A stretch of 63,955 nucleotides of DNA, filler included, from an uncultured bacterium (GCA_964372275.1; 4 parts of 4 records of this genome joined end to end with filler, not necessarily neighbours in it), one strand, 5' to 3'. Positions 3,546-51,600 are shown, counted from the first letter of the whole stretch. Program-made: numbers and translations. The notes: a model not told the origin generated them from the sequence alone.

Positions 3546-3581
3546 TCCCGTAGCTCGAATCTCGAACGCCGGAGAGACACC

Positions 3582-6303: not shown

Positions 6304-6327
6304 ACCGCGGTCTACGATGCGTGGGTG

Positions 6328-7413: not shown

Positions 7414-7429
7414 TGTAATTCGAGTCAAC

Positions 7430-8458: not shown

Positions 8459-8465
8459 ACCGACG

Positions 8466-16194: not shown

Positions 16195-16294
16195 NNNNNN
16201 NNNNNNNNNNNNNNNNNNNNNNNNNNNNNNNNNNNNNNTTAATTAATTAANNNNNNNNNNNNNNNNNNNNNNNNNNNNNNNNNNNNNNNNNNNN
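16195..16294. other. Artificial contig linker
   Basis: N44-TTAATTAATTAA-N44, stop codons in all six frames. Confidence 0.98.
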
Positions 16295-32442: not shown

Positions 32443-32542
32443 NNNNNNNNNNNNNNNNNNNNNNNNNNNNNNNNNNNNNNNNNNNNTTAATTAATTAANN
32501 NNNNNNNNNNNNNNNNNNNNNNNNNNNNNNNNNNNNNNNNNN
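32443..32542. other. Artificial contig linker
   Basis: N44-TTAATTAATTAA-N44. Confidence 0.98.
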
Positions 32543-34028: not shown

Positions 34029-34856
34029 ATGGCGCTCACCGTAAATACCAACCTGGCCAGCATCACTGCTCAGAAGAATCTCGCCGTCAGCTCCCAGCGG
34101 CTCGAGTCTTCGGTCACCAAGCTTTCCAGCGGCCTCCGAATCGCGTCTGCGAGCGATGACGCAGCCGGACTGGTGATTTCGGAGAAGATGCGCGCCCAGA
34201 TTCGTTCTCTTCAGCAGGCCCAAAGAAACTCGAACGACGGTGTCTCCCTCGCAAACACCGCCGACGGAGCTCTCGGCGAAATCAGCGCAATGCTCGCCCG
34301 CATGCGAGAGCTTTCGATCCAGTCGCTGAACGGGACCAACGGTACGAGCGAGCGGACGGCGCTCAACACCGAGTACGTCTCCCTCCGGGCCGAAATCGAC
34401 CGGATTTCGCAGGTTACCGCCTTCAACGGCGTCTTCCTGCTCAACGGTGGGACGGCAGTCGTGATCCAGGTCGGTGCCTTCACCACCAGCAACGACCGAA
34501 TCTCGATCGCCGTCGTCGATACCACGGCCGGCGGTCTCGCCCTCGACACCACTTCGGTAGGCGGAACGATTTCCCAAACCAAAGCCGCGCTCGCCGCCGT
34601 CGACGACGCAATCTCCGACGTGAACTCGGCGCGTGGAAGTTTCGGGTCGGCCGTAAACCGTATGAATACCACGCTCGCCGCACTCAGCAGCCTGGTCCAA
34701 AGCACCATCTCTGCCGAGAGCCGGATCCGGGACGCCGACGTCGCATCCGAAACGGCGGAGTTCACGCGGAACCAGGTCCTTCAGAGCGCCGGCATCTCGG
34801 TACTCGCCCAGGCGAACACTCTCACCCAGGCGGCCCTTCAACTGCTCCGGTTCTGA
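34029..34856 (+). CDS. fliC: Flagellin, 275 aa (subfamily C)
   Basis: Full N/C motifs; RBS GAGGAG; close paralogue of 32543-33369. Confidence 0.97.
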   Translation: MALTVNTNLASITAQKNLAVSSQRLESSVTKLSSGLRIASASDDAAGLVISEKMRAQIRSLQQAQRNSNDGVSLANTADGALGEISAMLARMRELSIQSLNGTNGTSERTALNTEYVSLRAEIDRISQVTAFNGVFLLNGGTAVVIQVGAFTTSNDRISIAVVDTTAGGLALDTTSVGGTISQTKAALAAVDDAISDVNSARGSFGSAVNRMNTTLAALSSLVQSTISAESRIRDADVASETAEFTRNQVLQSAGISVLAQANTLTQAALQLLRF

Positions 34857-35307
34857 CCGACCGCCATCGCGCGGACGACAACATCCTGACGATTCCCGAG
34901 ACTGAGAATGATCACCAGACCGACTCATCGATTCTTGCGGCGGCACCGACATCGACGTCGGTGGCAGCCACGATCGACCACGCTCCGCCTGACTGCGACG
35001 CGACCTCCCGGAGGCGGCTAGTACTCCGAGAGCGGACGCCTCGAGCACCCGACACGCCTCTTCTCGAACGAGCGCACGACCGACATCCCAAGTAGACCCC
35101 ACACCGCCCACACGAATACTCGACCCGACCGTACACGCCCCATCGAGCCACGACACGGATCACCGACGCCTCCACGCAGCGAAGCACCGATCTTCCGAAT
35201 CCCAGCCCTCTCGACACGAAGCCAACGAAAGCACCGTCCCACCCCACCGGAGCCTCGACACCCCAGCATACCCACCGTTGCCGCGAACCCCGAAGTGGAC
35301 CCGCGTG

Positions 35308-35323
35308 AACTAATGAATACGGT
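35308..35323. promoter_or_regulatory. Degenerate copy of the flagellin-block palindrome (AACTAA-N4-TACGGT)
   Basis: Left half matches the motif, right half has two mismatches; upstream of flagellin 35440. Confidence 0.35.
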
Positions 35324-35439
35324 CTCGATCAACGGCGCGAAACCCAGCTTCGAGCGACGAGCGCGCGACCCCGAGGCGACCGACCACGACCTCCCGACGA
35401 ATCTCGAACCGACGACGACGAACTGAAAAGGAGACGGAC

Positions 35440-36264
35440 ATGGCCCTTCTGATCAACACCAACCTCGCCAGCATCAACGCCCAGCGGAATCTCGCCTTCA
35501 ACACGAAGCGCCTCGAAAACTCCATCGGAAAGCTCTCGAGCGGTCTCCGGATCGCAAGTGCCAGCGACGACGCCGCCGGACTCTCGATCTCGGAGAAGTT
35601 CCGTGCCGAGATCCGATCGCTGCAGCAGGCCGAGCGAAACGCCAGTGACGGCATTTCTCTCGCGAACACGGCGGAAGGCGCCCTCTCCGAGGTGAGCTCC
35701 ATGCTGGTCCGGATGCGTGAGCTCGCAGTCCAATCGCTGAACGGCACGAACGGCACCAGCGAACGTCAAACCATGGATTCCGAATTCCAGACCCTCAAGG
35801 CGGAGATCAAGCGACTCGCCGAAGCCACCACCTTCAACTCGATCAAGATCCTCGCTGGTGCCGCGGCCACCGTCCTGCAGGTCGGAGCATCGAGCACCGC
35901 AAACGACACCATCTCCATTGCGGCGGTCAACGTCCGGCTGTCGGCCCTCGGACTGTCGAACACCGGGATCAGCGCGGCACTCGATGCCGGGGCCGCGCTC
36001 GGCGACCTGGACAGCGCGATCTCCACGGTGAACGGGTACCGGGGCCAGTTCGGCGCGGCCGCGAACCGAATCAACACCACGCTGGCGACCCTCACCAGCC
36101 GGATCCAGAACGTCATCGGCGCCGAGAGCCGGATCCGGGACGTCGACGTCGCACTCGAGACGGCGGAGTTCACGCGCGCCCAGATCCAGCAACAGGCCGG
36201 CGTCGCCATCCTCGGCCAGGCAAATACGCTCGCCCAGGCCGCGCTCCAACTTCTCCGGTTCTGA
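35440..36264 (+). CDS. fliC: Flagellin, 274 aa (subfamily D)
   Basis: Full N/C motifs; RBS AAGGAG. Confidence 0.97.
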   Translation: MALLINTNLASINAQRNLAFNTKRLENSIGKLSSGLRIASASDDAAGLSISEKFRAEIRSLQQAERNASDGISLANTAEGALSEVSSMLVRMRELAVQSLNGTNGTSERQTMDSEFQTLKAEIKRLAEATTFNSIKILAGAAATVLQVGASSTANDTISIAAVNVRLSALGLSNTGISAALDAGAALGDLDSAISTVNGYRGQFGAAANRINTTLATLTSRIQNVIGAESRIRDVDVALETAEFTRAQIQQQAGVAILGQANTLAQAALQLLRF

Positions 36265-36300
36265 TCCACGAACCCGATCTGACGTCCCGAGGAGATCACC

Positions 36301-37125
36301 ATGGCCCTCCTGATCAACACGAACCTCGCCAGTCTCAACGCCCAACGCAACCTCGCGTTCAACACCAAGAGGCTCGAGACGTCGATCGGCAAGCTCTCGA
36401 GCGGGCTACGGATCGCGAACGCGGCCGATGACGCGGCGGGACTGTCGATCTCCGAGCGGTTCAGGGCCGAAATACGATCCCTCCAGCAGGCCGAGCGGAA
36501 TGCGAGCGACGGAATCTCCCTCGCCAACACGGCCGAGGGCGCCCTCTCCGAAGTGAGCGCGATGCTCGTCCGGATGCGCGAGCTCGCGATCCAGTCACTC
36601 AACGGAACGAACGGAACGAGCGAACGGCAGACGATGGACTCCGAATTCCAGACCCTCAAGTCCGAGATCAAGCGGCTGGCCGAGGCGACGACATTCAACT
36701 CGATCAAGATCCTCGCCGGTGCCGCTGCGACGGTGCTCCAGGTCGGAGCGACGAGCACCGCGAATGACACGATTTCGATCGCGGCCGTGAACGTGCGCCT
36801 CTCGTCCCTCGGCCTTTCGAATACCACGATCAGCAACGCAACCGATTCCGGAGTCGCGGTCGGAGATCTCGACGACGCGATCTCGACGGTGAACGGATTC
36901 CGCGGCCAGTTCGGCGCCGCCGCGAACCGGATCAACACGACGCTCGCGACCCTCACCAGCCGGATCCAAAACGTGATCGGCGCCGAGAGCCGAATCCGAG
37001 ACGTCGACGTCGCCATCGAGACCGCCGAGTTCACGCGCGCCCAGGTCCAGCAGCAGGCAGGCGTCTCGATCCTCAGCCAGGCGAACACGCTTGCCCAGGC
37101 CGCCCTGCAACTCCTCCGCTTCTGA
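36301..37125 (+). CDS. fliC: Flagellin, 274 aa (subfamily D)
   Basis: Full N/C motifs; RBS GAGGAG; close paralogue of 35440. Confidence 0.97.
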   Translation: MALLINTNLASLNAQRNLAFNTKRLETSIGKLSSGLRIANAADDAAGLSISERFRAEIRSLQQAERNASDGISLANTAEGALSEVSAMLVRMRELAIQSLNGTNGTSERQTMDSEFQTLKSEIKRLAEATTFNSIKILAGAAATVLQVGATSTANDTISIAAVNVRLSSLGLSNTTISNATDSGVAVGDLDDAISTVNGFRGQFGAAANRINTTLATLTSRIQNVIGAESRIRDVDVAIETAEFTRAQVQQQAGVSILSQANTLAQAALQLLRF

Positions 37126-37535
37126 TGACGACGCGACCGCCGACAATCACGGGACATCACCTGAACCGCACCTCCCAGCTGCCTGGAAACGAACCTCCCC
37201 GACGCAACTTCCGGCGATCGCGCCTCCGGTTGCTCGACGAAACCCTGTCCGCGGTCGCGGCGCTGCGCAATGCCCGCCTCCGCGCGGATCGAGCCGACGG
37301 CGCGGAGCGTTACGCCTTCGCCGCGTCGCTGGTCCAGGAGCTTTTCGAGGACGCCGACACGTCGACCGCCGACAGGGAACTTGCGGCGAGCTACCGGTCG
37401 GTCCTCCTTCACCTCGCGAACGGCTTCGCCGCCGGTTCGGCCGCATCGTTCGCGACTGCCGAGCGCATCCTGCACGCCCTCCGCGCAACGTGCTTCGAGT
37501 CACCTCGATTCGGGCCCCACTCGACGACCTCCTGA
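37125..37535 (+). CDS. Highly divergent FliS-like protein
   Basis: TGATG coupling to the flagellin; LLDETL..A..LVQEL...D....ELA..Y...HL..G...AERILHALR has the same spacing as the other FliS paralogues. Confidence 0.5.
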   Translation: MTTRPPTITGHHLNRTSQLPGNEPPRRNFRRSRLRLLDETLSAVAALRNARLRADRADGAERYAFAASLVQELFEDADTSTADRELAASYRSVLLHLANGFAAGSAASFATAERILHALRATCFESPRFGPHSTTS

Positions 37536-37573
37536 TCCCGCCCGACCGATCCCCACCTACGAACCCCGAGAGA

Positions 37574-37589
37574 AACTAATGTTTTCGTT
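37574..37589. promoter_or_regulatory. Candidate palindromic operator AACTAA-N4-TTCGTT
   Basis: Near-perfect IR ~100 nt upstream of flagellin 37689. Confidence 0.5.
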
Positions 37590-37688
37590 CAACCAACCCC
37601 CGAGCGGAACACGATCGGTCGGACGTCCGGGCCCCGGAAGCCGAGAGCCCGCCAAGACTTCGAACTAACCACCCCAGGGAGAAGACAC

Positions 37689-38525
37689 ATGGCCATCACG
37701 ATCAACAACAACGTCGCGAGTCTCATTGCCCAGCGGAACCTCTCGCGCAACTCCAACCGCCTCGAAGGCTCGATCGGCCGCCTTACCAGTGGCCTGAGGA
37801 TCGCGGTCGCTTCGGACGACGCCGCCGGTCTCGCGATCTCCGAGAAGATGCGCGCCAGGATCCGGTCGCTCCAGCAGGCCCAACGGAACGCCGCCGACGG
37901 CATCTCGCTCGCGAACACCGCCGAAGGCGCGATGAACGAGATCAGCGGAATGCTCGTCCGGATGCGCGAGCTCGGCATGCAGGCCGCAAACGGCTCGACG
38001 GACCAGGAGCAGCGGGACGCCCTCAACGACGAGTTCCAGCTGCTCCTCGAGGAGATCCAGCGTATCGCGGAGTCGACCGAGTTCAACGGGGTTCCGCTTC
38101 TCGACGGGGGCGGCAGCACCGTGGACTTCCAGGTCGGTGCGGAGACCGACCCGACGAACCGGATCACCATCAGCGCCGTCGACATGACGATCACGACCGG
38201 ACTTTCGCTCGACGGCCGAAACATCAACGCCGCCAACGTGAGCGACATTCGCACCACCGTGGACAAGGTCGACGCGGCGATCACCACGGTCAACTCGGCG
38301 CGCGGCAAGTTCGGTGCGGTCGTCAATCGGATGTCGGCGACCGTCGCGATCGTCGGCTCCATGTTGCAGAACGTGATCGAGACGGAGAGCCGAATCCGCG
38401 ACGTCGACGTCGCGCTCGAGACTTCCGAAATGATGAAGGCGCAGGTCCTCCAGCAAGCCGGCATGGCGGTCCTCGCACAAGCCAACTCGCTGACCCAGAA
38501 CGCCCTCCAGCTCCTTCGATTCTAG
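37689..38525 (+). CDS. fliC: Flagellin, 278 aa (subfamily E)
   Basis: Full N/C motifs; QAANG..DQEQRDAL; INAANVS. Confidence 0.96.
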   Translation: MAITINNNVASLIAQRNLSRNSNRLEGSIGRLTSGLRIAVASDDAAGLAISEKMRARIRSLQQAQRNAADGISLANTAEGAMNEISGMLVRMRELGMQAANGSTDQEQRDALNDEFQLLLEEIQRIAESTEFNGVPLLDGGGSTVDFQVGAETDPTNRITISAVDMTITTGLSLDGRNINAANVSDIRTTVDKVDAAITTVNSARGKFGAVVNRMSATVAIVGSMLQNVIETESRIRDVDVALETSEMMKAQVLQQAGMAVLAQANSLTQNALQLLRF

Positions 38526-38566
38526 GATCCAACGCCTCCCAACGCCTCGTACCCACGGACCGAGCC

Positions 38567-38953
38567 ATGAACGGACACGCAACCTACTTCGACGACTCAT
38601 TGACCACCCGGACACCCGAGGGACTCGTCGTCGTGCTCCTCGACGGCGCGCTGAAAGCGATCTATCGGTCCCACCTCGCCATCCGGGCCGGTGACACGAG
38701 GGCTCGCAGCAGAAACGTCTCCCGCGCACTCGACTTCGTGCACGCACTGGCGCTTTCGCTCGATCCGGCGCCCGATCCGGTCTTCGTCGCGCGGCTGCAC
38801 GGTCTCTACGCGACGGTCGGGCAACTGCTCCTCGACGCCGATGCCCACGGCCGGGTGGAACCATTGGCCGCATGCGCCCGGATTCTCGCGAATCTTCGAG
38901 AGGGCTGGTGCCGCTTGTCCGCGATCCGCAACACCCACTCGGTCCAGAACTGA
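38567..38953 (+). CDS. fliS: FliS-family flagellin export chaperone
   Basis: Y....T.TPE.LVV.LLDGAL..I...AI..GD..VSRA...LSLD..RL..LY..LL.A..RIL.NLREGW. Confidence 0.82.
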   Translation: MNGHATYFDDSLTTRTPEGLVVVLLDGALKAIYRSHLAIRAGDTRARSRNVSRALDFVHALALSLDPAPDPVFVARLHGLYATVGQLLLDADAHGRVEPLAACARILANLREGWCRLSAIRNTHSVQN

Positions 38954-38977
38954 CAGTCCCGCTTCCAGGAGCCCATC

Positions 38978-39664
38978 ATGAACGTCACCTCGACCACGCC
39001 CCGCCCCCTGGCACTGACGCGTCGCGCGAGCCGACTGGATCGCTCGCTCGCGACCCGGCTCGGCGAGCGCCGTTCGAAAATCACGCGTCCCGACGTCACC
39101 CGGCCCGACGCCGATCTGCGGGACGACCGTGACCGCCAAAGACTCCTCGGCGCTCTCGGTTCCCAGCGTTCGGTCAACGGAGCGATCTCCGCCATCCACG
39201 ACGCGATCGACACCTTCGAAGCGCTGATTTACCACGTCGAAGAATCGCGGAACTCGCCGGTCGACCTCCGGAATGTCCTTGCCGGCTCGATCGCGTCGGC
39301 ACGCGAAATCGACCTTCATCTTCTCGAAGAGCTGCCGCTTCCGACGAACGCCGGCCCGCTGCTCACAATCCTCTCCGCCTCGGTTCATGTCCTACGTTCG
39401 GCCGATCCAACCGACGTCAACCCGACCATACTCCACCGGCTCCAAGCCTCGTCGACGTCCGGACTGACCGCCGCCCGACAGCTGTCCGCCGCGCTCGCCG
39501 CCCACGCCGACGCGATTGCCGGCCGACTCAGCCGGTTCTTCGAACCGATCGACCCCGCGGCCTCCGACCGCATCCGGGAAATCCTCATCGCCCAACGGGC
39601 AACCGCAATCATGGCCCAGGCCAATGCCGCGCCGTCCGCAGCGCTGACGTTGCTGCGGTTCTGA
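38978..39664 (+). CDS. Degenerate flagellin-like protein, 228 aa
   Basis: RBS CAGGAG; RLDRSLATRL and QRSVNGAISA echo flagellin N-terminal helices; ends AIMAQANAAPSAALTLLRF; lacks SSGLRI and ESRIRD. Confidence 0.7.
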   Translation: MNVTSTTPRPLALTRRASRLDRSLATRLGERRSKITRPDVTRPDADLRDDRDRQRLLGALGSQRSVNGAISAIHDAIDTFEALIYHVEESRNSPVDLRNVLAGSIASAREIDLHLLEELPLPTNAGPLLTILSASVHVLRSADPTDVNPTILHRLQASSTSGLTAARQLSAALAAHADAIAGRLSRFFEPIDPAASDRIREILIAQRATAIMAQANAAPSAALTLLRF

Positions 39665-39707
39665 GGCGCCGCACGCCGACCGACCGACCTTTCAAGAAGG
39701 AGCCGTC

Positions 39708-40541
39708 ATGGCACTCACGATCAACACCAATCTCGCGAGCATCACCGCACAGCGGAATCTCGCGTACAGCTCCCGCCGGCTCGAAAGCTCCGTCAGCCGC
39801 CTCTCGAGCGGCCTTCGGATCGCCACGGCCGCCGACGATGCAGCCGGCCTCTCGATCTCGGAACGGATGAGGGCGCAGATCCGGTCGCTGCAACAGGCGC
39901 AGAGGAACGCCAACGACGGGATCTCCCTGGCAAATACGGCCGACGGCGCCCTGAACGAGATCAGCGCGATGCTCATTCGCATGCGCGAGCTCGCCGTTCA
40001 GTCCCTGAACGGCACGAGCGCCACCGCCGAGCAGAACGCGCTCAATACCGAGTTCCAGGGCCTCATCGACGAGATCGATCGTGTCGCGAAGACGACGACG
40101 TTCGCCGGGGTCAAGATCCTCGACGGCTCGCTCGTCGACGGCATGGACTTCCAGGTCGGAACCGGCACCGGGTCGGTCGACCGGGTGAACGTTTCCGTCG
40201 CCGCGGCGACTGCGAGCCAGCTGCTGATCTCCGGAACCGATATCAACACCGACGGCGACACGACTCGCGCTGCGATCATCCAGGTAGATGGCGCCATCGA
40301 CAAGATCAACGCAGCCCGGAGCCGGTTCGGCGCCGTCGTCAACCGGATGAGCTCGACGATCTCGACGATCGCCGCGGTCCTTCAGAACACGATCGCGACC
40401 GAGAGCCGGATCCGTGATGTCGACATCGCGACCGAAACCGCCGAGTTCGCGCGCGCGCAGGTCCTCCAACAGGCCGGCGTCGCGATCCTGGCCCAGGCGA
40501 ACACGATCACGCAGTCCGCACTGGCCCTCCTCCGATTCTGA
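39708..40541 (+). CDS. fliC: Flagellin, 277 aa (subfamily F)
   Basis: Full N/C motifs; [16 protein letters not shown]. Confidence 0.97.
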   Translation: MALTINTNLASITAQRNLAYSSRRLESSVSRLSSGLRIATAADDAAGLSISERMRAQIRSLQQAQRNANDGISLANTADGALNEISAMLIRMRELAVQSLNGTSATAEQNALNTEFQGLIDEIDRVAKTTTFAGVKILDGSLVDGMDFQVGTGTGSVDRVNVSVAAATASQLLISGTDINTDGDTTRAAIIQVDGAIDKINAARSRFGAVVNRMSSTISTIAAVLQNTIATESRIRDVDIATETAEFARAQVLQQAGVAILAQANTITQSALALLRF

Positions 40542-40589
40542 CCCGCCGAGATCCGGCCCACGACGAATGAACCGATCCGAAACATGAAC

Positions 40590-40605
40590 ACCTAACGAAT
40601 TCGTT
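40590..40605. promoter_or_regulatory. Candidate palindromic operator ACCTAA-N4-TTCGTT
   Basis: Matches the shared motif; ~75 nt upstream of flagellin 40681. Confidence 0.45.
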
Positions 40606-40680
40606 CCGTCGGATCCCGAAGCGCCGACCGTACAAAGCGACCTTCCGAAACCGCCCTTCCACACCGAAAAGGAGATCCCA

Positions 40681-41508
40681 ATGGCCATCACCGTGAACAC
40701 CAACGTCGCCAGCATCACCGCGCAGCGAAATCTCTCCCTCAACTCGCGCCGTCTCGAGGGCTCAATCTCGAAGCTGTCGAGCGGCCTCCGGATCGCGACC
40801 GCAGCCGACGACTCGGCGGGGTTGGCGATCTCCGAGAAGATGCGAGCCCGTATCCGCTCCCTCCAGCAGGCGCAACGGAACGCGGCGGACGGCGTTTCGC
40901 TCGCGAACACCGCGGACGGCGCGCTGAACGAGATCAGCGGCATGCTCGTCCGGATGCGCGAGCTCGCCGTTCAGGCGGTCAACGGCACCAGCGACCAGGA
41001 TCAACGCAATGCGCTCGACGCCGAGTTCCAGTCGCTTCTCGATGAGATCACTAGAGTCTCCAGATCCACCGTCTTCAATGACATCAAGCTTCTGAACGGC
41101 TCCACCACGGTGGTCTTCCAGGTCGGAAGCGAAGTCTCCGTCGATTCGCGCATCACCGTCACGCCGATCGATACCACGCTCACCACGCTCGGCCTGGACG
41201 GCGAAGCGATCAACGGGACGGCGACCGACATCCGCACGGCGATGACCGCGATCGATTCGGCCGTGGACGACGTCAACGCCGCCCGAAGCAAGGTCGGCGC
41301 GGTCGTCAACCGCATGAGCACCACGGTCTCGATCGTCGGAAGCCTCATCCAGAACACCATCGCGACCGAAAGCCGCATCCGGGACGCCGACGTCGCCGTC
41401 GAAACCGCCGAATTCACCCGCGCTCAGGTCTTGCAGCAGGCCGGAGTCGCCGTCCTCGCGCAAGCGAACTCGATCACCCAGGCAGCCTTGCAGCTGCTTC
41501 GGTTCTGA
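40681..41508 (+). CDS. fliC: Flagellin, 275 aa (subfamily E)
   Basis: Full N/C motifs; RBS AAGGAG. Confidence 0.97.
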
Positions 41509-41550
41509 TCCGCTTCCGCCGTCCCCAACGATACACACGAGGAGATTCCC

Positions 41551-42378
41551 ATGGCCGTCACCGTGAACACGAACGTCGCGAGCATCACGGCACAGCGCAA
41601 CCTCTCGATGAACTCCCGGCGACTCGAGAGCTCGATCTCGAAGTTGTCGAGCGGACTTCGCATCGCCAGCGCCGCGGACGACTCGGCCGGTCTGGCGATT
41701 TCCGAAAAGATGCGCGCGCGTATCCGCTCCCTGCAGCAAGCACAGCGGAACGCCGCGGACGGGGTCTCCCTTGCGAACACGGCCGACGGTGCTCTGAACG
41801 AGATCAGCGCGATGCTCGTGCGCATGCGGGAACTCGCGGTTCAGGCGGTGAACGGCACGAGCGACCAGGACCAACGGGACGCGCTCGACGCCGAGTTCCA
41901 GTCCCTCCTGGAGGAAGTCGCCCGGGTTTCGAAGTCGACCGTCTTCAACGACATCAAGCTCCTCAACGGCTCGAACACCGTGGTCTTCCAGGTCGGCAGC
42001 GAAACGTCCGTCGATTCCCGCATCACGGTAACGCCGATCGATACGACGGTCACGACCCTCGGTCTGGACGGCGAGGCGATCAACGGCTCGGCCGGAGCAA
42101 TTCGGAACGCCATGACGGCGCTCGACACGGCGATCGACAGCGTCAACGCGGCCCGGAGCAAGGTCGGCGCCGTCGTGAACCGGATGAGCACCACGGTATC
42201 GATCGTCGGAAGCCTGATCCAGAACACCATCGCCACCGAGAGCCGCATTCGAGACGCCGACGTCGCGGTGGAGACCGCCGAATTCACCCGAGCACAGGTC
42301 CTCCAGCAAGCGGGAGTCTCGGTTCTCGCGCAGGCCAACTCGATCACGCAGGCCGCTCTCCAGCTCCTCCGCTTCTAG
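41551..42378 (+). CDS. fliC: Flagellin, 275 aa (subfamily E)
   Basis: Full N/C motifs; RBS GAGGAG. Confidence 0.97.
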
Positions 42379-42414
42379 AACCCCACCTCCGACCGACCCC
42401 GCAAGGAGCCCCGA

Positions 42415-43242
42415 ATGGCCGTCACCGTCAACACCAACGTCGCGAGCATCACCGCCCAGCGGAACCTCTCGCAGAACACCCGCCGGCTCGAGAGCTCGAT
42501 CGCGAAGCTCTCCAGCGGACTGCGAATCGCATCCGCCGCAGACGACTCGGCCGGACTGGCGATCTCCGAGAAGATGCGCGCTCGCATCCGGTCGCTCCAG
42601 CAGGCCCAACGGAACGCGTCCGACGGGGTCTCGCTCGCGAACACGGCCGACGGCGCCCTGAACGAGATCAGCGCGATGCTCGTCCGGATGCGCGAGCTGG
42701 CGGTTCAAGCCGTGAACGGCACCAGCGATCAAGATCAGCGGGACGCGCTCGACGCCGAGTTCCAGTCACTCCTCGACGAGATCGCGCGGGTCGCGAAGTC
42801 GACCGTCTTCAACGATTTGAAGTTGCTGAACGGCACCAACACCGTCGTCTTTCAGGTCGGAAGCGAGACGTCGACCGACTCCCGCATCACCGTCACCCCC
42901 GTCGACATGACGGTCACCACGCTCGGACTTGACGGTGAGGCGATCAACGGTTCCGCCGGCGCCATCCGCGCCGCCATGACGGCCATCGACGGCGCCATCG
43001 ATGCCGTCAATGCCGGGCGCAGCAAGTTCGGTGCGGTCGTGAACCGCATGAGCACGACGGTCTCAATCCTCGGAAGCCTGATCCAAAGCACGATCGCGAC
43101 CGAGAGTCGCATACGCGACGCGGACGTGGCGGCGGAGACCGCCGAGTTCACCCGCGCGCAGGTCCTCCAGCAGGCCGGCGTCTCCGTCCTCGCGCAGGCC
43201 AACGCCACGACCCAGGCGGCGCTCCAGCTCCTTCGATACTGA
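42415..43242 (+). CDS. fliC: Flagellin, 275 aa (subfamily E)
   Basis: Full N/C motifs; ends LLRY. Confidence 0.97.
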
Positions 43243-43292
43243 CCTTCGGCTCCGACTTCGACCGATCCGACAACTTCGAAAGGAAATACCCC

Positions 43293-44123
43293 ATGGCACT
43301 CATCGTGAACACCAACATCGCCAGTATCAACGCGCAGCGCCACCTCGCCGCGAACACTCGCCGACTGGAGGGCGCGATCGGCCGGCTCTCGAGCGGACTC
43401 CGGATCACCGGAGCCGCCGAAGACTCCGCCGGCCTCGCGATCTCCGAGAAGATGCGCGCCAAGATCCGCTCGCTCCAGCAAGCACAGCGAAACGCGTCGG
43501 ACGGTATTTCACTCGCCCATACCGCCGACGGGGCCATGAATGAAATCAGCGCAATGCTCGTCCGGATGCGCGAGCTCGCCGTACAGGCCGCCAACGGCAC
43601 GAGCGATCAGGACCAACGGGACGCGTTGAACGACGAGTACCAGTCGCTCTTGAGCGAGATTCAACGGGTTGCCCAGTCCACCGTCTTCAACAACATCGAG
43701 CTCCTGAACGGCGGCAGCGCGGTTGTGTTCCAGGTCGGTAGCGAGACCTCGACGATCGACCGCATCAGCGTCGGTGTCGTCGACATGAAGATCACCGCGC
43801 TCGGCGTCGACGGAACGGTAATCAACGCCGCCAATGTGAGCGTCATTCGCGATTCGATCAATGCAGTCGATGCCGCGATCACCGAGGTAAACGAGGCGCG
43901 CAGCCAGTTCGGAGCCGCGGTGAACCGGATGACGACGACGGTCTCGATCCTCGGCAGTCTGGTCCAGAACACGATCGCCGCCGAGAGCCGCATCCGGGAT
44001 GCCGACGTCGCGATCGAGACGGCCGAGTTCACGCGAGCCCAGGTCCTGCAGCAGGCCGGCGTCTCCGTACTCGCCCAAGCCAATTCGATCACGCAGTCCG
44101 CGCTTCAGCTGCTCCGGTTCTAG
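43293..44123 (+). CDS. fliC: Flagellin, 276 aa (subfamily E)
   Basis: Full N/C motifs; shares QAANG, ALNDE and INAANVS with 37689. Confidence 0.97.
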   Translation: MALIVNTNIASINAQRHLAANTRRLEGAIGRLSSGLRITGAAEDSAGLAISEKMRAKIRSLQQAQRNASDGISLAHTADGAMNEISAMLVRMRELAVQAANGTSDQDQRDALNDEYQSLLSEIQRVAQSTVFNNIELLNGGSAVVFQVGSETSTIDRISVGVVDMKITALGVDGTVINAANVSVIRDSINAVDAAITEVNEARSQFGAAVNRMTTTVSILGSLVQNTIAAESRIRDADVAIETAEFTRAQVLQQAGVSVLAQANSITQSALQLLRF

Positions 44124-44277
44124 GGTCCGCCGCGAACGTCGGCCGACGGATACGGAGGAATGCACATGTATCGCCACGCGCATGAACGGAACAAAGGTCC
44201 ACCACGGGGCGAACCGAACCTTCACCGACCTTGCCCTGCGGCACCCCGACCGAACTCGAACGATCTGGAACACCCGA

Positions 44278-44658
44278 ATGAACGACAAGATTCACATCGA
44301 GGATGAAGCAGAGGTGGAGTCCCCGGTTCGGCTGATCGTCGACCACTACGACGCCGCGCTCAAGGCGATCTACCGCGCGCACGTTGCCCACGAAAGAGGA
44401 GATCGAATCACGAGGGGCAAGGCGGTATCCCAGGCGCTCGCGATACTTCAGGAACTCACGCAGTCGTTGGATCCGCTTCCCGCCCCGCGGCTCGTCCGCC
44501 GGCTCATCGAGCTCTATCTCTGGACCGGCCAGCTCCTCGTCGAAGCAAACGTTTTCGACGACGGTGGAAACCTCGCGAAGGCGGCAAGGATCCTGTCCAC
44601 CTTGCGAAGCGGCTGGAGCGACCTCCACGACCGGATGCGTTCCGAGACCCGCCAGTGA
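44278..44658 (+). CDS. fliS: FliS-family flagellin export chaperone
   Basis: SP.RLIV..YDAAL..I..A....GD...AVSQA..ILQEL..SLD..L.ELY..LL.EAN..RIL.TLRSGW; alternative in-frame ATG at 44182. Confidence 0.85.
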   Translation: MNDKIHIEDEAEVESPVRLIVDHYDAALKAIYRAHVAHERGDRITRGKAVSQALAILQELTQSLDPLPAPRLVRRLIELYLWTGQLLVEANVFDDGGNLAKAARILSTLRSGWSDLHDRMRSETRQ

Positions 44659-44687
44659 CGTCGTCCTCTTACGCAGGAAGGATTTCC

Positions 44688-45386
44688 ATGCACCTCACGA
44701 TTTCGAGATCGTTGCTCCTGGAGAACCCCCGCGAGACGGTGCGTCCCGCGGAGCGCCGGTCGCCCGCGACACCCGCGGCGGGCGCGGACTCGGGCGGCTC
44801 CCGACCTGCCCCCGACCGGAGGAGCAGCTCCGAACGAGCCCCTCGACCGTCGCGCACCATCCGCCTACTGCAAGACGAACTGCGTGGCGCAAACGAGGCG
44901 CTCTCGATCGCTTCCTCGACTGCGACCGAGCTCGATCTCCTTCGATCGAACGACTCGATCGATCGCTCGGCGGTGGCGTCCACGATCCGTGAGGTCGTGG
45001 CGGCCGCGATCCGCCGCCTCGCCGATCTCGAAGCGGGCAGAACGGACGCACCCGCATCCGCTGCCCGGTCCGAATGGGTCGCGCTTCTCGGGACCGCGTT
45101 GCGCGCTGCCGAGGAGACGTTCAACCAATCCGGCGACCCTTCGGCGGCTCGGGCCCAGGCCCTCGCGACCACACTTCGAAAGATCGAGCGGGAGGCCGGG
45201 TTGGCCGCCGGACGGATCGCCCGCGACATCAACGACCGAATTTCCGAGCAGGGCTCCAGCGGAGCTCCAGACGACGAACCCACTCCCGAACGGACCCGCC
45301 ATCGAATGGTCCTCCAGCGGTCGGCCGCCGTGCTCGCCCAGGCCAACGCCGCGGCAGTCTCCGCCGTCAGTCTCCTTCGATTCTGA
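44688..45386 (+). CDS. Degenerate flagellin-like protein, 232 aa
   Basis: RBS AGGAAGGA; MHLTIS start; IRLLQDELRGANEALSIA resembles [18 protein letters not shown]; ends AVLAQANAAAVSAVSLLRF. Confidence 0.7.
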   Translation: MHLTISRSLLLENPRETVRPAERRSPATPAAGADSGGSRPAPDRRSSSERAPRPSRTIRLLQDELRGANEALSIASSTATELDLLRSNDSIDRSAVASTIREVVAAAIRRLADLEAGRTDAPASAARSEWVALLGTALRAAEETFNQSGDPSAARAQALATTLRKIEREAGLAAGRIARDINDRISEQGSSGAPDDEPTPERTRHRMVLQRSAAVLAQANAAAVSAVSLLRF

Positions 45387-45431
45387 CCGGCGACCCGGCC
45401 CGCCGCAGAACTTCTCGCCCAAGGAGCAACC

Positions 45432-46268
45432 ATGGCACTCATCGTCTCCAACAACTTCGCCGCACTCAGCGCCCAGCGAAACCTCGCCAATACGTCGAGA
45501 CGACTGGAGAACTCGATCAGCCGGCTCTCCAGCGGTCTCCGCGTGGCGACCGCGGCCGACGACGCCGCCGGCCTCTCGATCTCGGAGCGTATGCGTGCAC
45601 AGATCCGCTCGCTCCAACAGGCGCAACGCAACGCCAACGACGGAATCTCCATGGCCAACACCGCGGACGGCGCGCTCAATGAGATCAGCGCCATGTTGAT
45701 CCGGATGCGGGAGCTCGCGATCCAGTCGTTGAACGGAACCAGCGGAACCGCGGAACGAAACGCGCTCGACGCCGAATACCAGGGTCTCGTCGACGAGATC
45801 GATCGTGTCGCCAAGACCACCACGTTCATGGGGGCGAAGATTCTGGACGGCAGCATGGTCGTAAACGGAATCGAATTCCAAGTCGGCCCAGGAACCACGT
45901 CCAACGACCGGATCCTCGTTTCGGGAGCCGCCGCGACGGCGAGCCAGCTGCTTCTCTCCGGCACGGACATCAATACCGATATCGATACCACCAAGGCCGC
46001 GATCACGCAGGTAGACGGCGCGATCGACAAGGTCAACGCGACCCGAAGCCGGTTCGGTGCGGTCGCGAACCGGATGAACGCAACGATCACCAGCATTGCC
46101 ACGGTGCTGCAGAACCAGATGGCGACTGAGAGCCGCATCCGCGATGTCGACGTCGCGGCCGAAACCGCCGAATTCGCGCGGCTCCAGGTGCTGCAACAGG
46201 CCGGTGTCGCCGTCCTGGCGCAGGCGAACACGCTGACCCAGTCCGCACTCTCCCTGCTCCGGTTCTAG
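45432..46268 (+). CDS. fliC: Flagellin, 278 aa (subfamily F)
   Basis: Full N/C motifs; close paralogue of 39708. Confidence 0.97.
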
Positions 46269-46313
46269 CCGTCGACGGCAGCATCGAACCGCACACACAC
46301 ACGAGGTGAAACC

Positions 46314-46538
46314 ATGCTCGATCCGATCGTCGCACCCGCTCGGCAGCCATCGCGCAGGATCTTCCGGCTGGAGCTCGAAGCGCCCTCGACCGAATCGGTA
46401 CCACCCGGCGAGACCGTCCCCTGGACGCGCCTCGCGGCGGAGGCCGGCTCAGAGCTCGCCCGCGATGCGGCCGCGGCTGTGGCCGTCCAATCGTCCGGAC
46501 TGACCGCCTCCTCCTGGTCCTTGCTCGCGTTCGAGTGA
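46314..46538 (+). CDS. 74-aa small protein resembling only the flagellin C-terminal tail
   Basis: RBS GAGGTG; AAAAVAVQSSGLTASSWSLLAF aligns to [22 protein letters not shown]. Confidence 0.55.
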   Translation: MLDPIVAPARQPSRRIFRLELEAPSTESVPPGETVPWTRLAAEAGSELARDAAAAVAVQSSGLTASSWSLLAFE

Positions 46539-46573
46539 TTTCCGAAACACCGATCGAGCCCCGGAGAACTCTC

Positions 46574-46975
46574 ATGAACGGATACGACCGCTACCTGGAA
46601 ACCGACGTCGCGACCCGATCGCCATTGTCGATCGTGATTGCGCTCTACGACGGAGCGCTACGCGCCCTCGGACTCGCGCGGTCCTCGACCGATCGGTTCT
46701 CCCTCGGACGCTACGCCTGCCGCGCGAACCTGATCGTAGGGGAGCTCGCGGCTTCGCTCGACGAAAAGGCGGCGCCCGAGATGTCCAGTTCCTTGCACCG
46801 GCTCTACACCACCGTGTCCGCGTTGATCGTCGACGGAAGCGAGCGCGGTGATCCCAAGCCATTGGAGGAGGCCGCACGGATCCTCACCGTCTTGCGACGC
46901 GGTTGGGCGTCGATTCCCAACGCCAGCGGATCGCCGGACCCGAGATCGAGACCGCCGTCGCGCGGAGGTGGCTGA
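46574..46975 (+). CDS. fliS: FliS-family flagellin export chaperone (most canonical copy)
   Basis: MNGYDRY....V.T.SP...VI.LYDGALR.L..A; RA..IV.EL..SLD; L..LY; LEE...IL..LR.GW; RBS GGAGA. Confidence 0.88.
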   Translation: MNGYDRYLETDVATRSPLSIVIALYDGALRALGLARSSTDRFSLGRYACRANLIVGELAASLDEKAAPEMSSSLHRLYTTVSALIVDGSERGDPKPLEEAARILTVLRRGWASIPNASGSPDPRSRPPSRGGG

Positions 46976-47044
46976 CGCCACTCCCGACGGTTCCCTCCAA
47001 CTACTTTCAGCCTTCAACCAAACGATAAATACCGGGAGCGAAAG

Positions 47045-47878
47045 ATGGCACTCACGATCAACACCAACATCGCCAGCGTCGAAGCTCAGCGCAATCTCTC
47101 GTCCAACAACCGCCGGCTCGAAGGATCGATCGCCCGACTCTCGAGCGGCCTCCGGATCGCGACAGCTGCGGACGACGCTGTCGGTCTTTCGCTGTCCGAG
47201 AAGATGCGAGCACAGATCCGCTCCCTGAAGCAGGCCGAGAGAAACGCGAGCGATGCCGTCTCGCTCGCGGGTGCGGCGGACGGAGCGCTGGCCGAGGTCG
47301 GCTCGATGCTCGTCCGGATGCGTGAGCTGGCCGTCCAGTCGCTCAACGGTTCGAACGGGACCGAGGAACGCAAGACGATGGAGACCGAATTCCGCCTGCT
47401 GATCGAGGAGATCGACCGCCTGGCCCAAGCGACGAAGTTCAACGGCGTCCAGCTGATCGCGGGCGGCAACGACACCGTTTTCCAGGTTGGCAGCGAAACC
47501 AACAGCACGAACCAGATCACCGTGAGCGCGGTCAACACATTGGTCTCCGCGGCCGGCCTGAACCTCTTGAGCGCCCACGTCTCCACCGCCGTCTCCGCCG
47601 GCGCCGCCGTCGCGAAGATCGACTCCGCCATCGACAAGGTCAGCGGCTTCCGCGGCAAGTTCGGAGCCGCGCTCAACCGCGTCAACAGTACTGTCGCCGC
47701 CCTGGCCAGCATGATCCAGAACACCATGGCCGCCGAGAGCCGCATCCGCGACGTCGACGTCGCACTCGAGACCGCCGAGTTCACGCGCGCGCAGGTGCAG
47801 CAGCAGGCGGGCGTGGCGGTCCTCGCGCAGGCCAATACGCTCACGCAATCCGCCCTCCAACTGCTGCGGTTCATCTAG
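47045..47878 (+). CDS. fliC: Flagellin, 277 aa (subfamily A)
   Basis: Full N/C motifs; EERKTMETE signature shared with contig-1 copies. Confidence 0.97.
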   Translation: MALTINTNIASVEAQRNLSSNNRRLEGSIARLSSGLRIATAADDAVGLSLSEKMRAQIRSLKQAERNASDAVSLAGAADGALAEVGSMLVRMRELAVQSLNGSNGTEERKTMETEFRLLIEEIDRLAQATKFNGVQLIAGGNDTVFQVGSETNSTNQITVSAVNTLVSAAGLNLLSAHVSTAVSAGAAVAKIDSAIDKVSGFRGKFGAALNRVNSTVAALASMIQNTMAAESRIRDVDVALETAEFTRAQVQQQAGVAVLAQANTLTQSALQLLRFI

Positions 47879-48129
47879 TCCGTTCGTCGCGGTTCGGAAA
47901 CTCCGCGAAACAGAGTCCGATCGCCACAGCGCCCCGTCTCCCATCGAGGAGGTAGATCGATGTCACGCAGGGTCTCATTCCATCCACGATCGAGACCGCC
48001 ACTCCGCCGATGGAGATCCGTGAAGTTCGTCGGTTTGGTGCTCGACGCTGCAGATGAGGCGCGCCAGAGCCTCCACGTCGGCACGCTCGAGGCCCTCCCT
48101 TTCTTCTCTCACAACACGAGGAACCAAAC

Positions 48130-48536
48130 ATGGCACTGACTATCAATACGAACATCGCCAGCGTCGAAGCCCAACGAAACCTGTCGTTCAACAACCGGCG
48201 CCTCGAGGGATCGATCGCCCGACTCTCCAGCGGTCTCCGGATCGCGACGGCCAGCGACGATGCCGTCGGCCTTTCCTTGTCGGAAAAGATGCGGGCCCAG
48301 ATCCGATCGCTGAAACAGGCGGAACGAAACGCCGGTGACGCCATCTCGCTCGCGGGCGCGGCGGACGGCGCGCTGGCCGAGGTCGGCGCGATGCTGGTCC
48401 GCATGCGGGAGCTGGCGATCCAGTCACTCAACGGATCCAACGGGACCGAGGAACGAAAGACGATGGAGACCGAGTACCGGCTCCTGATCGACGAGATCGA
48501 CCGCCTCGCCCAGGCCACGAAGTTCAACGGCGTCGA
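48130..48536 (+). CDS. fliC: Flagellin, 3'-truncated (subfamily A)
   Basis: MALTINTNIAS..ATKFNGV running into the contig end. Confidence 0.95.
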
Positions 48537-48636
48537 NNNNNNNNNNNNNNNNNNNNNNNNNNNNNNNNNNNNNNNNNNNNTTAATTAATTAANNNNNNNN
48601 NNNNNNNNNNNNNNNNNNNNNNNNNNNNNNNNNNNN
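48537..48636. other. Artificial contig linker
   Basis: N44-TTAATTAATTAA-N44. Confidence 0.98.
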
Positions 48637-48640: not shown

Positions 48641-51600
48641 ATGCCCCTCCAGCATTTTGGTGGTGGGGGGGACGAGTCTCTTTTGGGGCTCGGGGTCTTT
48701 CGTGCGGTCGGGGGGAGAGGCGTGCTCGTCGGGCTTCGCCATCGCGCTTTTGTCGGTCTGTCGCTCGCGACGGCGATCGCCGTCGGCTGCGGCGACGACG
48801 TGGAGCTCGTCGGCGAAGGGCCGGTTTCGATGATCAAGCAGGCGGTCGACTCCGCCGTCTGCAACGACGACACGGCGACGCGAAACGAGGACTCGAACAA
48901 CGCAAACACCACCGTTGTCACGGCGCTCGACCTCTGCAGCCCGAGCCCTTGCAAGGTGAAGGCGGGAAGCTGCACGGTAAGTCCGTCCGATACCCTCGTG
49001 ATCGTCGCGTCGGACGGATGCAATCAAGACGGCAGCCGACCGAGCCAACTGCGATTCAAGCCGACGGCGCACGCCCAGGGAACCTTCGAGATCAACTACC
49101 AGCTCGAGAACAACACCGGCACCGCCAACTGCACCACCAAGCTGACCGTCACCGTCAATGCCAACAACGACGACGTGATGGCATTCGCCACACCGACGCC
49201 GGCCAACTTCACGATTCTCGAGGATACCGCCAGCACGACACTCAACTACCAGGTTTTCAATGACTACGAAGACCTGACCGCCGTTTCGGTCACCGGATTC
49301 ACCGACAACCAGACGCTGCTCCCGAATGCGAACGTCGTCGCGAGCGGATCGGGACGCTTCTACGACGGCACGGAGTCGACGCCGCGATTCAAAGCGGCCC
49401 GCAGCCTGACGTTCGGTCTCGCCGCCCACCAGAACGGCTCGGTCGTCGTCACCGCGAGGGCCGAAGACGGCGGCCTCGACACGGCGGACAACGACACCGT
49501 CACCGTCACCGTCACCGCGGTGAACGACGAGCCGGGCTTCGTCAAAGGGGCCAACCTGACGATCCTGGAGGACGCCGGGGCCCAGACGGTGAGCGGCTGG
49601 GCGACCTCGATCACCAAAGGCCCGGCGGCCGCCACCGACGAATCGAGCCAGTCGATCACCTTCACCGAGACTTTCACGAGCGGCTTCTTCTCGGCCAGTC
49701 CCGTCGTCGCCGACGGCGCGTCCCCCACCGGAACCCTGACCTATACCGTCAGTCCGGACCTGAACGGCGTGGTCACGGTGACCGTCGTCGTCAGCGACAG
49801 CGGCGGCACCGCCAACGGCGGTGACGACACCGGAAACACCGAGACGTTCGTCCTCACCGTCACGCCGGTCAACGACCAGCCCGCCTTCACCAAAGGGGCG
49901 AACCAGACGGTCTTGGAGGACAGCGGCGCCAAGACCGTCGCCGGTTGGGCCACCGGATTCGACGCCGGGCCGTCCGACGAGGACTCGGGGGGGGCCAACC
50001 AGCAGTCGATCGCCGACTTCGTCCTCACCAACAACAACAACGCCCTCTTCTCGGTCCAGCCGGACGTCGCCAACGACGGCACGTTGACCTTCACCCCGGC
50101 GGCCAACGCCAACGGCACCGCCACCGTCACGGTGCAGGTCCGGGACTCGGGCGGAACGGCGAACGGCGGCGTCGACCTCTCGGTCGCGCAGACGTTCACC
50201 ATCGTGGTGACGGCGGTCAACGACGAGCCGACCTTCACCCACGGCGGCAACCAGACGGTGCTGGAGGACGCCGGGGCGCAGTCGGTGGTCAACTTCGCCA
50301 AGCCGAGCAACACCGACTTCCCGAACACTCCCGCGAACTGGGAGGGCCCGGCCGACGAAGCGTCGCAGACGGTCGCCGGCTGGATCATCGCCACCAGCAA
50401 CCCCTCGCTCTTCTCGGCCGGGCCGTCGATCGCGCTGGCCACCGGCAACCTGACCTACACCCCGGCGGCCAACGCCAACGGCACGGCGACCGTCACCGTC
50501 CAGGTTCAGGACAGCGGCACCAACGGCGGCGCCAACGGCGACGACGCCGTGAGCCAGCCGCAGACATTCACCATCGTCGTCACCGCGGTCAACGACATCC
50601 CCACCTTCACCAAGGGGGCGAACCCGACGGTGCTGGAGGACAGCGGCACGACGACGGTGGCCGGTTGGGCCACCGCCTTCGACGCCGGCCCGGCCGACGA
50701 GGACGCCGCCCAGGCCGTCTCCGACTACCTCCTGTCGAACAACAACAACGGCCTGTTCTCCACCCAGCCGGACGTGGCGAACGACGGCACGCTCACCTTC
50801 ACGGTCGCCGCCGACGCCAACGGCTCGGCGACGGTCAGCGTCCAGGTGAAGGACAACGGCGGTACGGCGAACGGCGGCGTCGACACCAGCACCGTCCAGA
50901 CCTTCACCATCGTCGTCACCTCGGTCAACGACCGGCCCACCTTCACCCATGGCGGCAACCAGACCGTACTGGAGGACGCCGGGGCGCAGACCGTCGTCAA
51001 CTTCGCCAAACCGAGCAACACCGACTTCCCGACCACCCCCGCCAACTGGGAGGGACCGGCGGACGAGGCGTCGCAGACGGTCGCCGGTTGGACGATCGCC
51101 ACCAGCAACCCCTCGCTCTTCTCGGCCGGTCCGTCGATCGCGCTGGCCACCGGCAATCTGACCTACACCCCGGCGGGCCACGCCAACGGCACGGCGACGG
51201 TGACCGTCCAGGTGCAGGACAGCGGCGGCACCGCCAACGGCGGGCTCGACCTGAGCCTGGCGCAGACCTTCACCATCACCGTCACCGCGGTCAACGACGC
51301 CCCGGCCTTCACGCTCGGCGCCAATCCGACCGTCAACGAGGACAGCGGGACGACCACCCTCGCCGGGTGGGCGACCGGCTTCGACGCCGGGCCGGCCGAC
51401 GAAGACGCCGCGCAGGTGATCGCCGACTTCGTCCTCTCCAACAACAACAACGCCCTCTTCTCGACCCAGCCGGACATCGCCAACGACGGGACGCTCACCT
51501 TCACCCTCACGGCGAACGCCAACGGTTCGGCGGTGGTCACGGTGCAGGTGCAGGACAACGGCGGGACGGCGAACGGCGGCGTCGATCTCTCCGTCGCGCA

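Follow-up and report, generated by a model that had tools for sequence, protein, structure and literature searches.

In a stretch of DNA of 63,955 nucleotides (nt) from an uncultured bacterium (GCA_964372275.1; hereafter the window), two open reading frames (ORFs), c1 and c2, follow directly on genes for the flagellin chaperone FliS and end in a tail resembling the C-terminal D0 segment of flagellin (CD0). We tentatively interpret c1 and c2 as rapidly evolving proteins of flagellin origin that do not polymerise and that act as clients or competitors of the FliS whose gene precedes them, an interpretation that we regard as a good possibility rather than as probable. An initial annotation of the window had described both as uninterrupted ORFs of 228 and 232 amino acids (aa), each lying directly after a fliS gene, in which the flagellin motifs SSGLRI, RMREL and ESRIRD are lost and a flagellin tail is kept; the coordinates, the open frames, the position behind fliS, the loss of the motifs and the tail were borne out. 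The two ORFs, here called mimics, and the features that define them are as follows (E, expectation value).

38978..39664, + strand: c1, orphan ORF of 228 aa with a CD0 tail, 24 nt after the fliS-A stop
44688..45386, + strand: c2, orphan ORF of 232 aa with a CD0 tail, 29 nt after the fliS-B stop
39563..39661, + strand: CD0-like tail of c1, residues 196-228 (paired by hmmsearch with flagellin profile positions 243-275; hhalign E 2.8e-4)
45276..45383, + strand: CD0-like tail of c2, residues 197-232 (hhalign, 36 columns, E 3.8e-5; the following flagellin matched by BLASTP at E 3e-6)
38567..38953, + strand: fliS-A, directly upstream of c1 (Pfam FliS E 3e-19; NCBIfam fliS E 4e-11)
44278..44658, + strand: fliS-B, directly upstream of c2 (Pfam FliS E 9.2e-20 on 44293-44658)
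38967..38971, + strand: Shine-Dalgarno sequence AGGAG, 6 nt 5' of the c1 ATG, read from the sequence
44675..44682, + strand: Shine-Dalgarno sequence AGGAAGGA, 5 nt 5' of the c2 ATG, read from the sequence

c1 and c2 retain the tail by which flagellins bind FliS

The tails were scored by searching every stop-to-stop segment of at least 40 aa in the window (663 in total) with a profile built from the last 36 flagellin columns. The 18 flagellin C-termini scored E values of 1e-19 to 1e-23 and were followed by c2 (4.4e-6) and c1 (2.3e-5), and the next-best segment reached E 1.3. Both matches finish at the final residue, with the AQAN...LLRF end present, and 11 (c1) and 10 (c2) of the last 17 positions match the flagellin fla1. 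When c1 and c2 were compared with the flagellins of the window by BLASTP, hhalign and hmmsearch, the alignment was limited to their last 28-36 residues, at E values from 1e-4 to 3e-6. Judged by these comparisons, the flagellin tail of c1 and c2 is real and far beyond chance.

Beyond the tail, the family signatures of flagellin were missing. The regular-expression classes for SSGLRI, RMREL, ESRIRD and DD..G were found in neither mimic; those for RMREL, ESRIRD and DD..G occur in all four flanking flagellins (fla4 reads TSGLRI, which falls outside the SSGLRI class used). Searches of Pfam (E <= 1) assigned c1 and c2 to no family and returned only a sub-threshold DUF1840 match for c1. Flagellin_N (PF00669) matched neither mimic at E <= 1 and all four flagellins scanned at E 1e-38 to 6e-42, and the likeness to Flagellin_C or FlgL that the initial annotation had proposed to look for did not appear: the 86-position Flagellin_C model (PF00700) gave no match at E <= 1, Pfam and NCBIfam showed no likeness to the FlgL, FlgK or FliD families, and the tail was seen only with the local profile. 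In NCBIfam (E <= 5) a flagellin tail was returned at E 2 for c1 and an irrelevant match for c2. No match to the FliT, FlaG, FlgM or FliS families was found either (Pfam and NCBIfam, with hhalign for FliS). By these measures c1 and c2 fall outside the flagellin family and retain its terminal motif alone.

In Campylobacter jejuni, FliS binding needs the flagellin C-terminal D0, and binding is lost when the last 10 residues are removed (PMC5466977); in crystal structures, the last ~40 flagellin residues wrap FliS (PMC7248283). The proposal of the initial annotation that the tail is the FliS-binding D0 segment fits this mapping, and, as far as the sequence can tell, the tails of c1 and c2 are intact including the last 10 residues, which is the requirement for a FliS client in C. 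jejuni (PMC5466977). As for a second trait of such clients, linkage to fliS, c1 and c2 share the strand of a fliS paralogue that ends 24 or 29 nt before them, and they appear to be translationally linked to it; in c2, translation could alternatively start at a GTG (44655) overlapping the fliS-B stop. Because the tail is the segment gripped by FliS and the mimics seem translationally linked to fliS, a role as FliS client would be the most likely mechanism.

The two tails were further compared with each other. Over the last 32 codons of c1 and c2, 16 residues (50%) are identical and just 7 of these have the same codon. The proportion of nonsynonymous differences (pN, 0.27-0.37) is lower than that of synonymous differences (pS, 0.59-0.60; Fisher p 0.03-0.04). 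The comparison of nonsynonymous with synonymous rates (dN/dS) by region, which the initial annotation had envisaged for orthologues, was made on the c1/c2 paralogue pair only; it gave 0.31-0.38 for the tail and, on an unreliable alignment, about 0.78 for the body.

Retention of the tail as DNA rather than as protein, through gene conversion from flagellin 3' ends or as a promoter or leader for the flagellin 43-45 nt downstream, would be another way to arrive at such ends. This sequence closes every flagellin of the array, the next gene beginning 36-50 nt later, and the c2 tail DNA is 77% identical to that of fla8 over 84 nt. Against this, synonymous sites are the more divergent ones (pS 0.59 vs pN 0.33), the tail DNA of c1 and c2 is identical to the neighbouring flagellin tails at only 45-53 of 96 nt, and QR in place of QQ as well as AQANAA are common to both mimics and present in none of the 16 flagellin tails compared. 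Scans for the sigma-54 (28 matches, 37.7 expected by chance) and sigma-28 (9 matches, 8.6 expected) consensus patterns remained at chance; nothing exceeding chance was found for sigma-70 promoters and terminators, and Rfam returned a tRNA only. Since the tails share residues unique to the mimics and so little DNA identity with their neighbours, recent gene conversion or a DNA-level element is unlikely, and we consider this explanation very improbable.

The mimics lie in a cassette that appears to be duplicated

Each mimic is flanked by fliS and flagellin genes in the same arrangement, the outer genes of the two cassettes (A, 37689-40541; B, 43293-46268) being:

37689..38525, + strand: flagellin fla4, first gene of cassette A (Pfam Flagellin_N and Flagellin_C)
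39708..40541, + strand: flagellin fla5, last gene of cassette A, 43 nt after c1 (Pfam Flagellin_N and Flagellin_C)
43293..44123, + strand: flagellin fla9, first gene of cassette B, sister of fla4
45432..46268, + strand: flagellin fla10, last gene of cassette B, 45 nt after c2 (Pfam-supported)

Among 16 flagellins placed in a tree, fla5 and fla10, which directly follow c1 and c2, are sisters with a support of 96/94 and an identity of 81%, and so are fla4 and fla9, which directly precede fliS-A and fliS-B (support 87/81, 69% identity). The two cassettes agree in gene order and spacing, and together with the sister pairs this agreement suggests that flagellin, fliS, mimic and flagellin were duplicated as one unit. 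FliS-A and FliS-B form the most similar FliS pair (41% identity); in the FliS tree, where all paralogues of the window sit on long branches, A, B and C are unresolved and do not conflict with a block duplication. The duplicated cassette can thus serve as an internal clock, for which the divergence between copies was calculated by the Nei-Gojobori method.

Upstream flagellins fla4/fla9: dN 0.22, dS 0.90
Downstream flagellins fla5/fla10: dN 0.13, dS 0.99
FliS-A/FliS-B: dN 0.65, dS 1.41
Mimic tail, last 24-32 codons: dN 0.36-0.44, dS 1.16-1.17
Mimic body, unreliable alignment: dN about 1.0, dS 1.3

Coding status of the mimics

The G+C content at the three codon positions (0.69/0.53/0.79 in c1 and 0.70/0.61/0.77 in c2) resembles that of the fliS genes (0.69/0.49/0.80 in a fliS example). 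A frameshifted pseudogene was considered and rejected: the frames are open, and a flagellin profile run on the other five frames of the c1 and c2 regions found no flagellin similarity in any of them. The claim of the initial annotation that c1 and c2 are not simple pseudogenes is supported by the lack of flagellin similarity in other frames, by the fliS-like G+C pattern, by the ribosome-binding sites and by the lower pN than pS in the tails; the part of its argument that drew on uninterrupted frames fared less well, an open frame being weak evidence at 65% G+C. Since the G+C content of the window ranges from 62 to 75%, long spurious ORFs are common and an open frame by itself is little proof.

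Relatives of the mimics were sought in protein collections, in genomes and in the literature. An exhaustive search of 1,835,955,588 representative proteins with c1 returned c1 itself and one match in a 949-aa protein (E 8e-5, residues 23-56). Word-indexed searches of 5.8 billion clusters with c1, c2 and the c2 body returned only the queries themselves (for c1 and c2, the 8000 candidates with most shared words were scored). A scan of species-representative genomes for FliS, with a two-sequence alignment as query, yielded 22 loci (best identity, 38%) from Pseudomonadota, Opitutaceae, Nitrospirota and Chloroflexota. Among their 1319 ORFs of at least 60 aa, 30 match the flagellin profile at E <= 0.01, and these are flagellins, fragments (one cut by a contig end, one a split gene) or FlgL-like proteins. 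In the one locus where the ORFs after fliS were read (L008), a 122-aa ORF follows fliS. The split gene (L015, 2300-3461, + strand, from a betaproteobacterial metagenome-assembled genome) is a flagellin divided into an N-terminal ORF of 154 aa and a C-terminal ORF of 138 aa, probably as a result of frameshifting or misassembly. Open-access text searched by keyword yielded no protein with a D0 tail alone beside fliS. The mimics are known from one uncultured genome only. In a language-model atlas, c1 and c2 adjoin the same unnamed clusters of 246-253 aa, and for each mimic 9 of 30 matches lie in a cluster set carrying Flagellin_N (21% of the members in an example cluster); we take this placement near Flagellin_N clusters as a lead only.

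Several of these observations weigh against the FliS-client interpretation. Neither c1 nor c2 has an orthologue in the protein collections searched, and a tail-only ORF was found in none of the 22 FliS loci from other phyla. Of the FliS-binding segment (~40 residues), the mimics keep only the distal ~17-23 residues well and the proximal half poorly; Q249, Q252, A254 and G255, which are invariant in 15 of 15 flagellins, are altered in both mimics. The second-position G+C of c2 (0.61, vs 0.43-0.50 in the flagellin genes, fliS-A and fliS-B) is raised, which fits relaxed constraint. Given the periodic composition of each ORF, its frame would stay open by chance with a probability of 0.083 (c1) or 0.044 (c2). 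The body dN/dS of ~0.78, taken from an alignment that is locally no better than random (250 of 500 shuffles reach the real score), would also be expected from neutral drift, and the evidence for selection is modest because it comes from one paralogue pair and about 30 codons.

Many of these points are what non-functional relics would leave, that is, old flagellin copies drifting neutrally, with frames held open by G+C and tails that are the slowest part to decay: bodies that can no longer be recognised and have a dN/dS of this size, no relatives in the searches, open frames of appreciable chance and a raised second-position G+C in c2. The ORF at 46314-46538, whose tail-like end is very faint, might be another such relic. 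Other features do not fit relics, which we regard as unlikely. The start, the Shine-Dalgarno sequence, the length and the frame have been kept in both copies across a dS of ~1. Multiplying the single values gives a joint chance for both frames being open of 0.004 with periodic composition; with uniform composition, where the single chances are 0.014 (c1) and 0.015 (c2), it gives 2e-4. The bodies, though saturated with changes, still show the G+C periodicity at third positions, the tails have a lower pN than pS at p about 0.03-0.04, and c1 and c2 occupy the entire gap between fliS and the next flagellin, though bacteria usually delete dead DNA.

The ORF at 46314-46538 (+ strand) encodes 74 aa, lies between fla10 and fliS-C with its stop overlapping the fliS-C start, and has no Pfam match. 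Its end shows a faint likeness to the flagellin tail (tail-profile E 1.5 among the 663 segments), and it could be a further-decayed mimic or a product of chance.

Traces of flagellin in the bodies

Two stretches upstream of the tails were aligned with flagellin:

39145..39250, + strand: c1 stretch like the start of the flagellin C-terminal D1 helix (nhmmer, 12.1 bits)
44856..44927, + strand: c2 residues 57-80, colinear with flagellin profile positions 57-80 in the N-terminal D1 helix (independent E-value 0.05, not significant)

The c1 stretch pairs with columns 500-606 of a flagellin DNA profile (about flagellin residues 167-203), in the same codon phase following a one-base alignment gap. None of 300 codon shuffles reached its score (best shuffle, 6.7 bits), and residues 63-93 of c1 pair with profile positions 174-204 also in the protein search (hmmsearch). 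This significant C-terminal D1 stretch shows c1 to be flagellin-derived beyond its tail. The c2 body did not match the flagellin DNA profile. With the tails removed, 12 (c1) and 58 (c2) of 500 shuffles reached the real score against the flagellin protein profile, and global colinearity between the c1 and c2 bodies is slight (8 of 500 shuffles). The eroded flagellin bodies of the initial annotation are therefore seen as a significant signal in c1 (0 of 300 shuffles) and not in c2, where flagellin ancestry of the body would rest on positional paralogy; the traces of an N-terminal D1 helix that it reported for both did not hold up, the trace in c2 being the non-significant one listed above and that in c1 belonging to the C-terminal D1.

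An alternative origin for the bodies is a chimera, in which an unrelated helical gene after fliS (e.g. FliT-like) was fused in frame to a flagellin 3' end by a deletion; the tail would then be the only flagellin-derived part, and a FliS-binding function would still be possible. That hhalign and BLASTP align the tail alone, that no significant flagellin signal was obtained from the c2 body at the protein or the DNA level and that a small helical ORF follows fliS in an Opitutaceae locus would all fit such a fusion. The in-frame, significant C-terminal D1 stretch of c1 argues against it, as do the weak colinearity of c2 residues 57-80 with flagellin 57-80 and the lack of matches to the FliT, FlaG, FlgM and FliS families, and we consider a chimera improbable. 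The possibility that the mimic body is itself a FliS paralogue fused to a substrate tail was rejected, hhalign giving E 0.19-0.52 against a 26-sequence FliS profile.

Single-sequence AlphaFold2 models of both mimics are all-helical and of low confidence (mean predicted local distance difference test score 42.3 for c1 and 49.1 for c2). They place a helix at residues 13-34 of c1 and disorder in the first ~55 residues of c2, which are rich in P, R and S, both predictions being of low confidence. A Foldseek search of the Protein Data Bank (PDB) with the c2 model found generic helical bundles only, with no match at E <= 0.001. In sequence searches of the PDB (E <= 10), c1 matched one flagellin fusion chain through its tail only (E 0.31), and c2 an unrelated auracyanin.

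The suggestion of the initial annotation that the mimics might be cap, junction or length-control subunits of the filament obtained no support. In this case they would be minor subunits of the axial flagellum that insert through the D0 helix, for instance at the junction between flagellin classes or near the cap. The flagellin C-terminal D0 helix also forms the inner tube of the filament, c1 has the predicted N-terminal helix mentioned above, and a complex filament is plausible given at least 18 flagellin C-termini; moreover, the Caulobacter crescentus flagellin FljJ occupies the position closest to the hook and is unable to build a filament on its own (PMC7591256). Such a subunit, however, would be expected to pair its D0 helices and to fit its neighbours in the lattice. 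In c2, whose start is predicted at low confidence to be disordered, an N-terminal partner for the C-terminal D0 helix is missing. Neither mimic has kept any D1 motif or the spoke region, the rate at which the bodies change is too high for part of a lattice, and likeness to FlgL, FlgK and FliD is missing, so that we rate this role as rather doubtful.

Comparison with known regulators of FliS and flagellin

The nearest functional parallels are found among flagellin paralogues that do not build the filament and among proteins that act on FliS. FljJ is a 'regulatory flagellin' that is chaperone-bound and exported and controls the translation of other flagellins (PMC7591256, citing Ardissone et al. 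2020). It is like the role proposed here in being a non-filament flagellin paralogue of a multi-flagellin organism, and unlike the mimics in being a complete flagellin, which shares 49% identity with the structural flagellins and works with the chaperone FlaF and the partner FlbT and not with FliS, as far as described in that source; c1 and c2, in turn, match no flagellin Pfam model and keep the C-terminal D0 tail alone. Neither FlbT nor FlaF was found among 30 window ORFs in Pfam scans, no dedicated search being made.

HP1076 of Helicobacter pylori is a small helical protein with a flagellin-D1-like fold that binds FliS with an affinity of ~15 nM and competes with FlaA/FlaB (PMC7248283), and it sets a precedent for a flagellin mimic acting on FliS. 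It is unlike c1 and c2 in mimicking D1, in docking on alpha2-alpha3 of FliS and in being able to bind together with a D0 peptide (PMC7248283), whereas the mimics carry the D0 peptide itself. HP1076 was not among the matches of c1 and c2 in the PDB-wide sequence search (E <= 10).

Flagellin relatives outside the filament are also represented by FlaC of C. jejuni, a secreted non-structural flagellin that FliS binds via the conserved D0 (PMC5466977), and by the flagellin-homologous proteins of Vibrio, which are exported and not part of the filament (PMC6692518). Unlike c1 and c2, both have recognisable D0 and D1 at both ends. To our knowledge, neither FlaC nor the Vibrio proteins are encoded directly after fliS.

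FlgM of Salmonella is a regulator other than a flagellin; it binds FliS and is itself exported as a late substrate. It lacks a flagellin-like tail, and the mimics lack a FlgM family match. The hook-filament junction protein FlgL, whose chaperone is FlgN, is a helical axial protein and a distant flagellin homologue with flagellin-like ends. FlgL-like ORFs were caught by the flagellin profile in two of the 22 FliS loci (L019 and L020), and such a match extends over most of the length (positions 15-264 in L019), unlike the tail-only match of c1 and c2. In their proposed mode of action, c1 and c2 would thus be closest to a cross of HP1076, the FliS competitor, and FlaC or FljJ, the non-structural flagellin paralogues; in sequence terms they are like none of these three.

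A proposed role for c1 and c2

In the FliS-client interpretation, c1 and c2 would be real, lineage-specific protein-coding genes whose ancestor was a flagellin gene between a fliS paralogue and another flagellin, predating the block duplication of the cassette. The helical bodies would since have diverged almost freely, losing the D1 motifs and the spoke region needed for filament packing, and the last ~20-36 residues, the C-terminal D0 helix, would have been held by selection at the protein level. Each mimic would act as a non-polymerising client of its own upstream FliS and fill the D0 groove of this chaperone, either as a pseudo-substrate exported via the flagellar type III system or as a competitor in the cytoplasm; by either route, it would tune the free amount of that FliS paralogue for the many flagellins of the organism. 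We infer the flagellin ancestry of c2 and, for both mimics, expression, FliS binding, export and a regulatory effect from the sequence. A complex prediction for FliS-A (26-row alignment) with residues 160-228 of c1 (17-row alignment), run without controls, gave 0.16 and 0.07 against a mark of 0.32, which weighs neither way on binding.

A more specific variant, which we hold to be rather improbable, is that the mimics are dedicated pseudo-substrates: each would load its own FliS through the D0 tail and dock this chaperone at the export gate, and the later secretion or displacement of the mimic would set the order or ratio of flagellin classes in a composite filament, beginning with the flagellin encoded directly downstream. 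If this were true, a gutted flagellin would provide a checkpoint at the level of the chaperone, with a logic like that of FlgM or FljJ and acting on FliS itself. The choice of flagellin and the timing of export in multi-flagellin bacteria are poorly understood. Were c1 and c2 FliS clients, a tail-only protein with its own FliS would represent a simple natural control of chaperone availability and a flagellin turned into a regulator by the loss of all but one interface, and it would mark the D0-helix residues that serve FliS recognition rather than polymerisation.

The genes fliS-A and c1 share one reading frame, with a single TGA and 24 nt between them (38567-39664), and read-through of the fliS-A stop would yield a FliS tethered to a D0 tail. 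The genes fliS-B and c2 are in different frames, so that the shared frame of fliS-A and c1 may be a coincidence.

The surrounding flagellin array

The window consists of four contig pieces of ~16 kb each, joined by N runs around TTAATTAATTAA (16195-16294, 32443-32542 and 48537-48636); a further N run is found at 52680-52779. Piece 3 (32543-48536), which contains both mimics, is made up almost entirely of short flagellin genes (274-278 aa) on the same strand with fliS paralogues interspersed, and piece 1 contains additional flagellins, another fliS and sugar genes of the pseudaminic-acid type. Together, 18 flagellin C-termini (counted with the flagellin-tail profile) and five FliS paralogues lie in ~32 kb of the window (1-6303 and 32543-48536). 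Flagellin genes are truncated at three piece ends (3-626, 32543-33369 and 48130-48536), which means that the assembly broke within flagellin repeats and that the true array is larger than shown.

The tree of 16 flagellins has four well-supported clades, the singleton fla1 and two divergent copies (4278-5114 and 5470-6303), which are 42-54% identical to the other flagellins. Adjoining these (6325-11332, + strand) are four genes, coding for a BNR/sialidase-like protein, a PseB-like dehydratase (Polysacc_synt_2), a DegT-type aminotransferase and a FapA-domain protein, which suggests that the flagellins are glycosylated with a nonulosonic acid. One of the five FliS paralogues is a degenerate one, as judged by profile comparison: the 136-aa ORF at 37125-37535 (+ strand), which overlaps the stop of the flagellin fla3, keeps an RIL..LR motif and, without a Pfam match, aligns with the 26-sequence FliS profile at E 9e-5 over 95 columns (hhalign). 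Beyond the last join, an ORF of more than 1395 aa (48641-52828 and beyond, + strand), with an N run inside, consists of repeats of ~100 residues with a recurring VNDxPxF(T/V)KGANQTV motif and looks like a cadherin-like or adhesin repeat protein.

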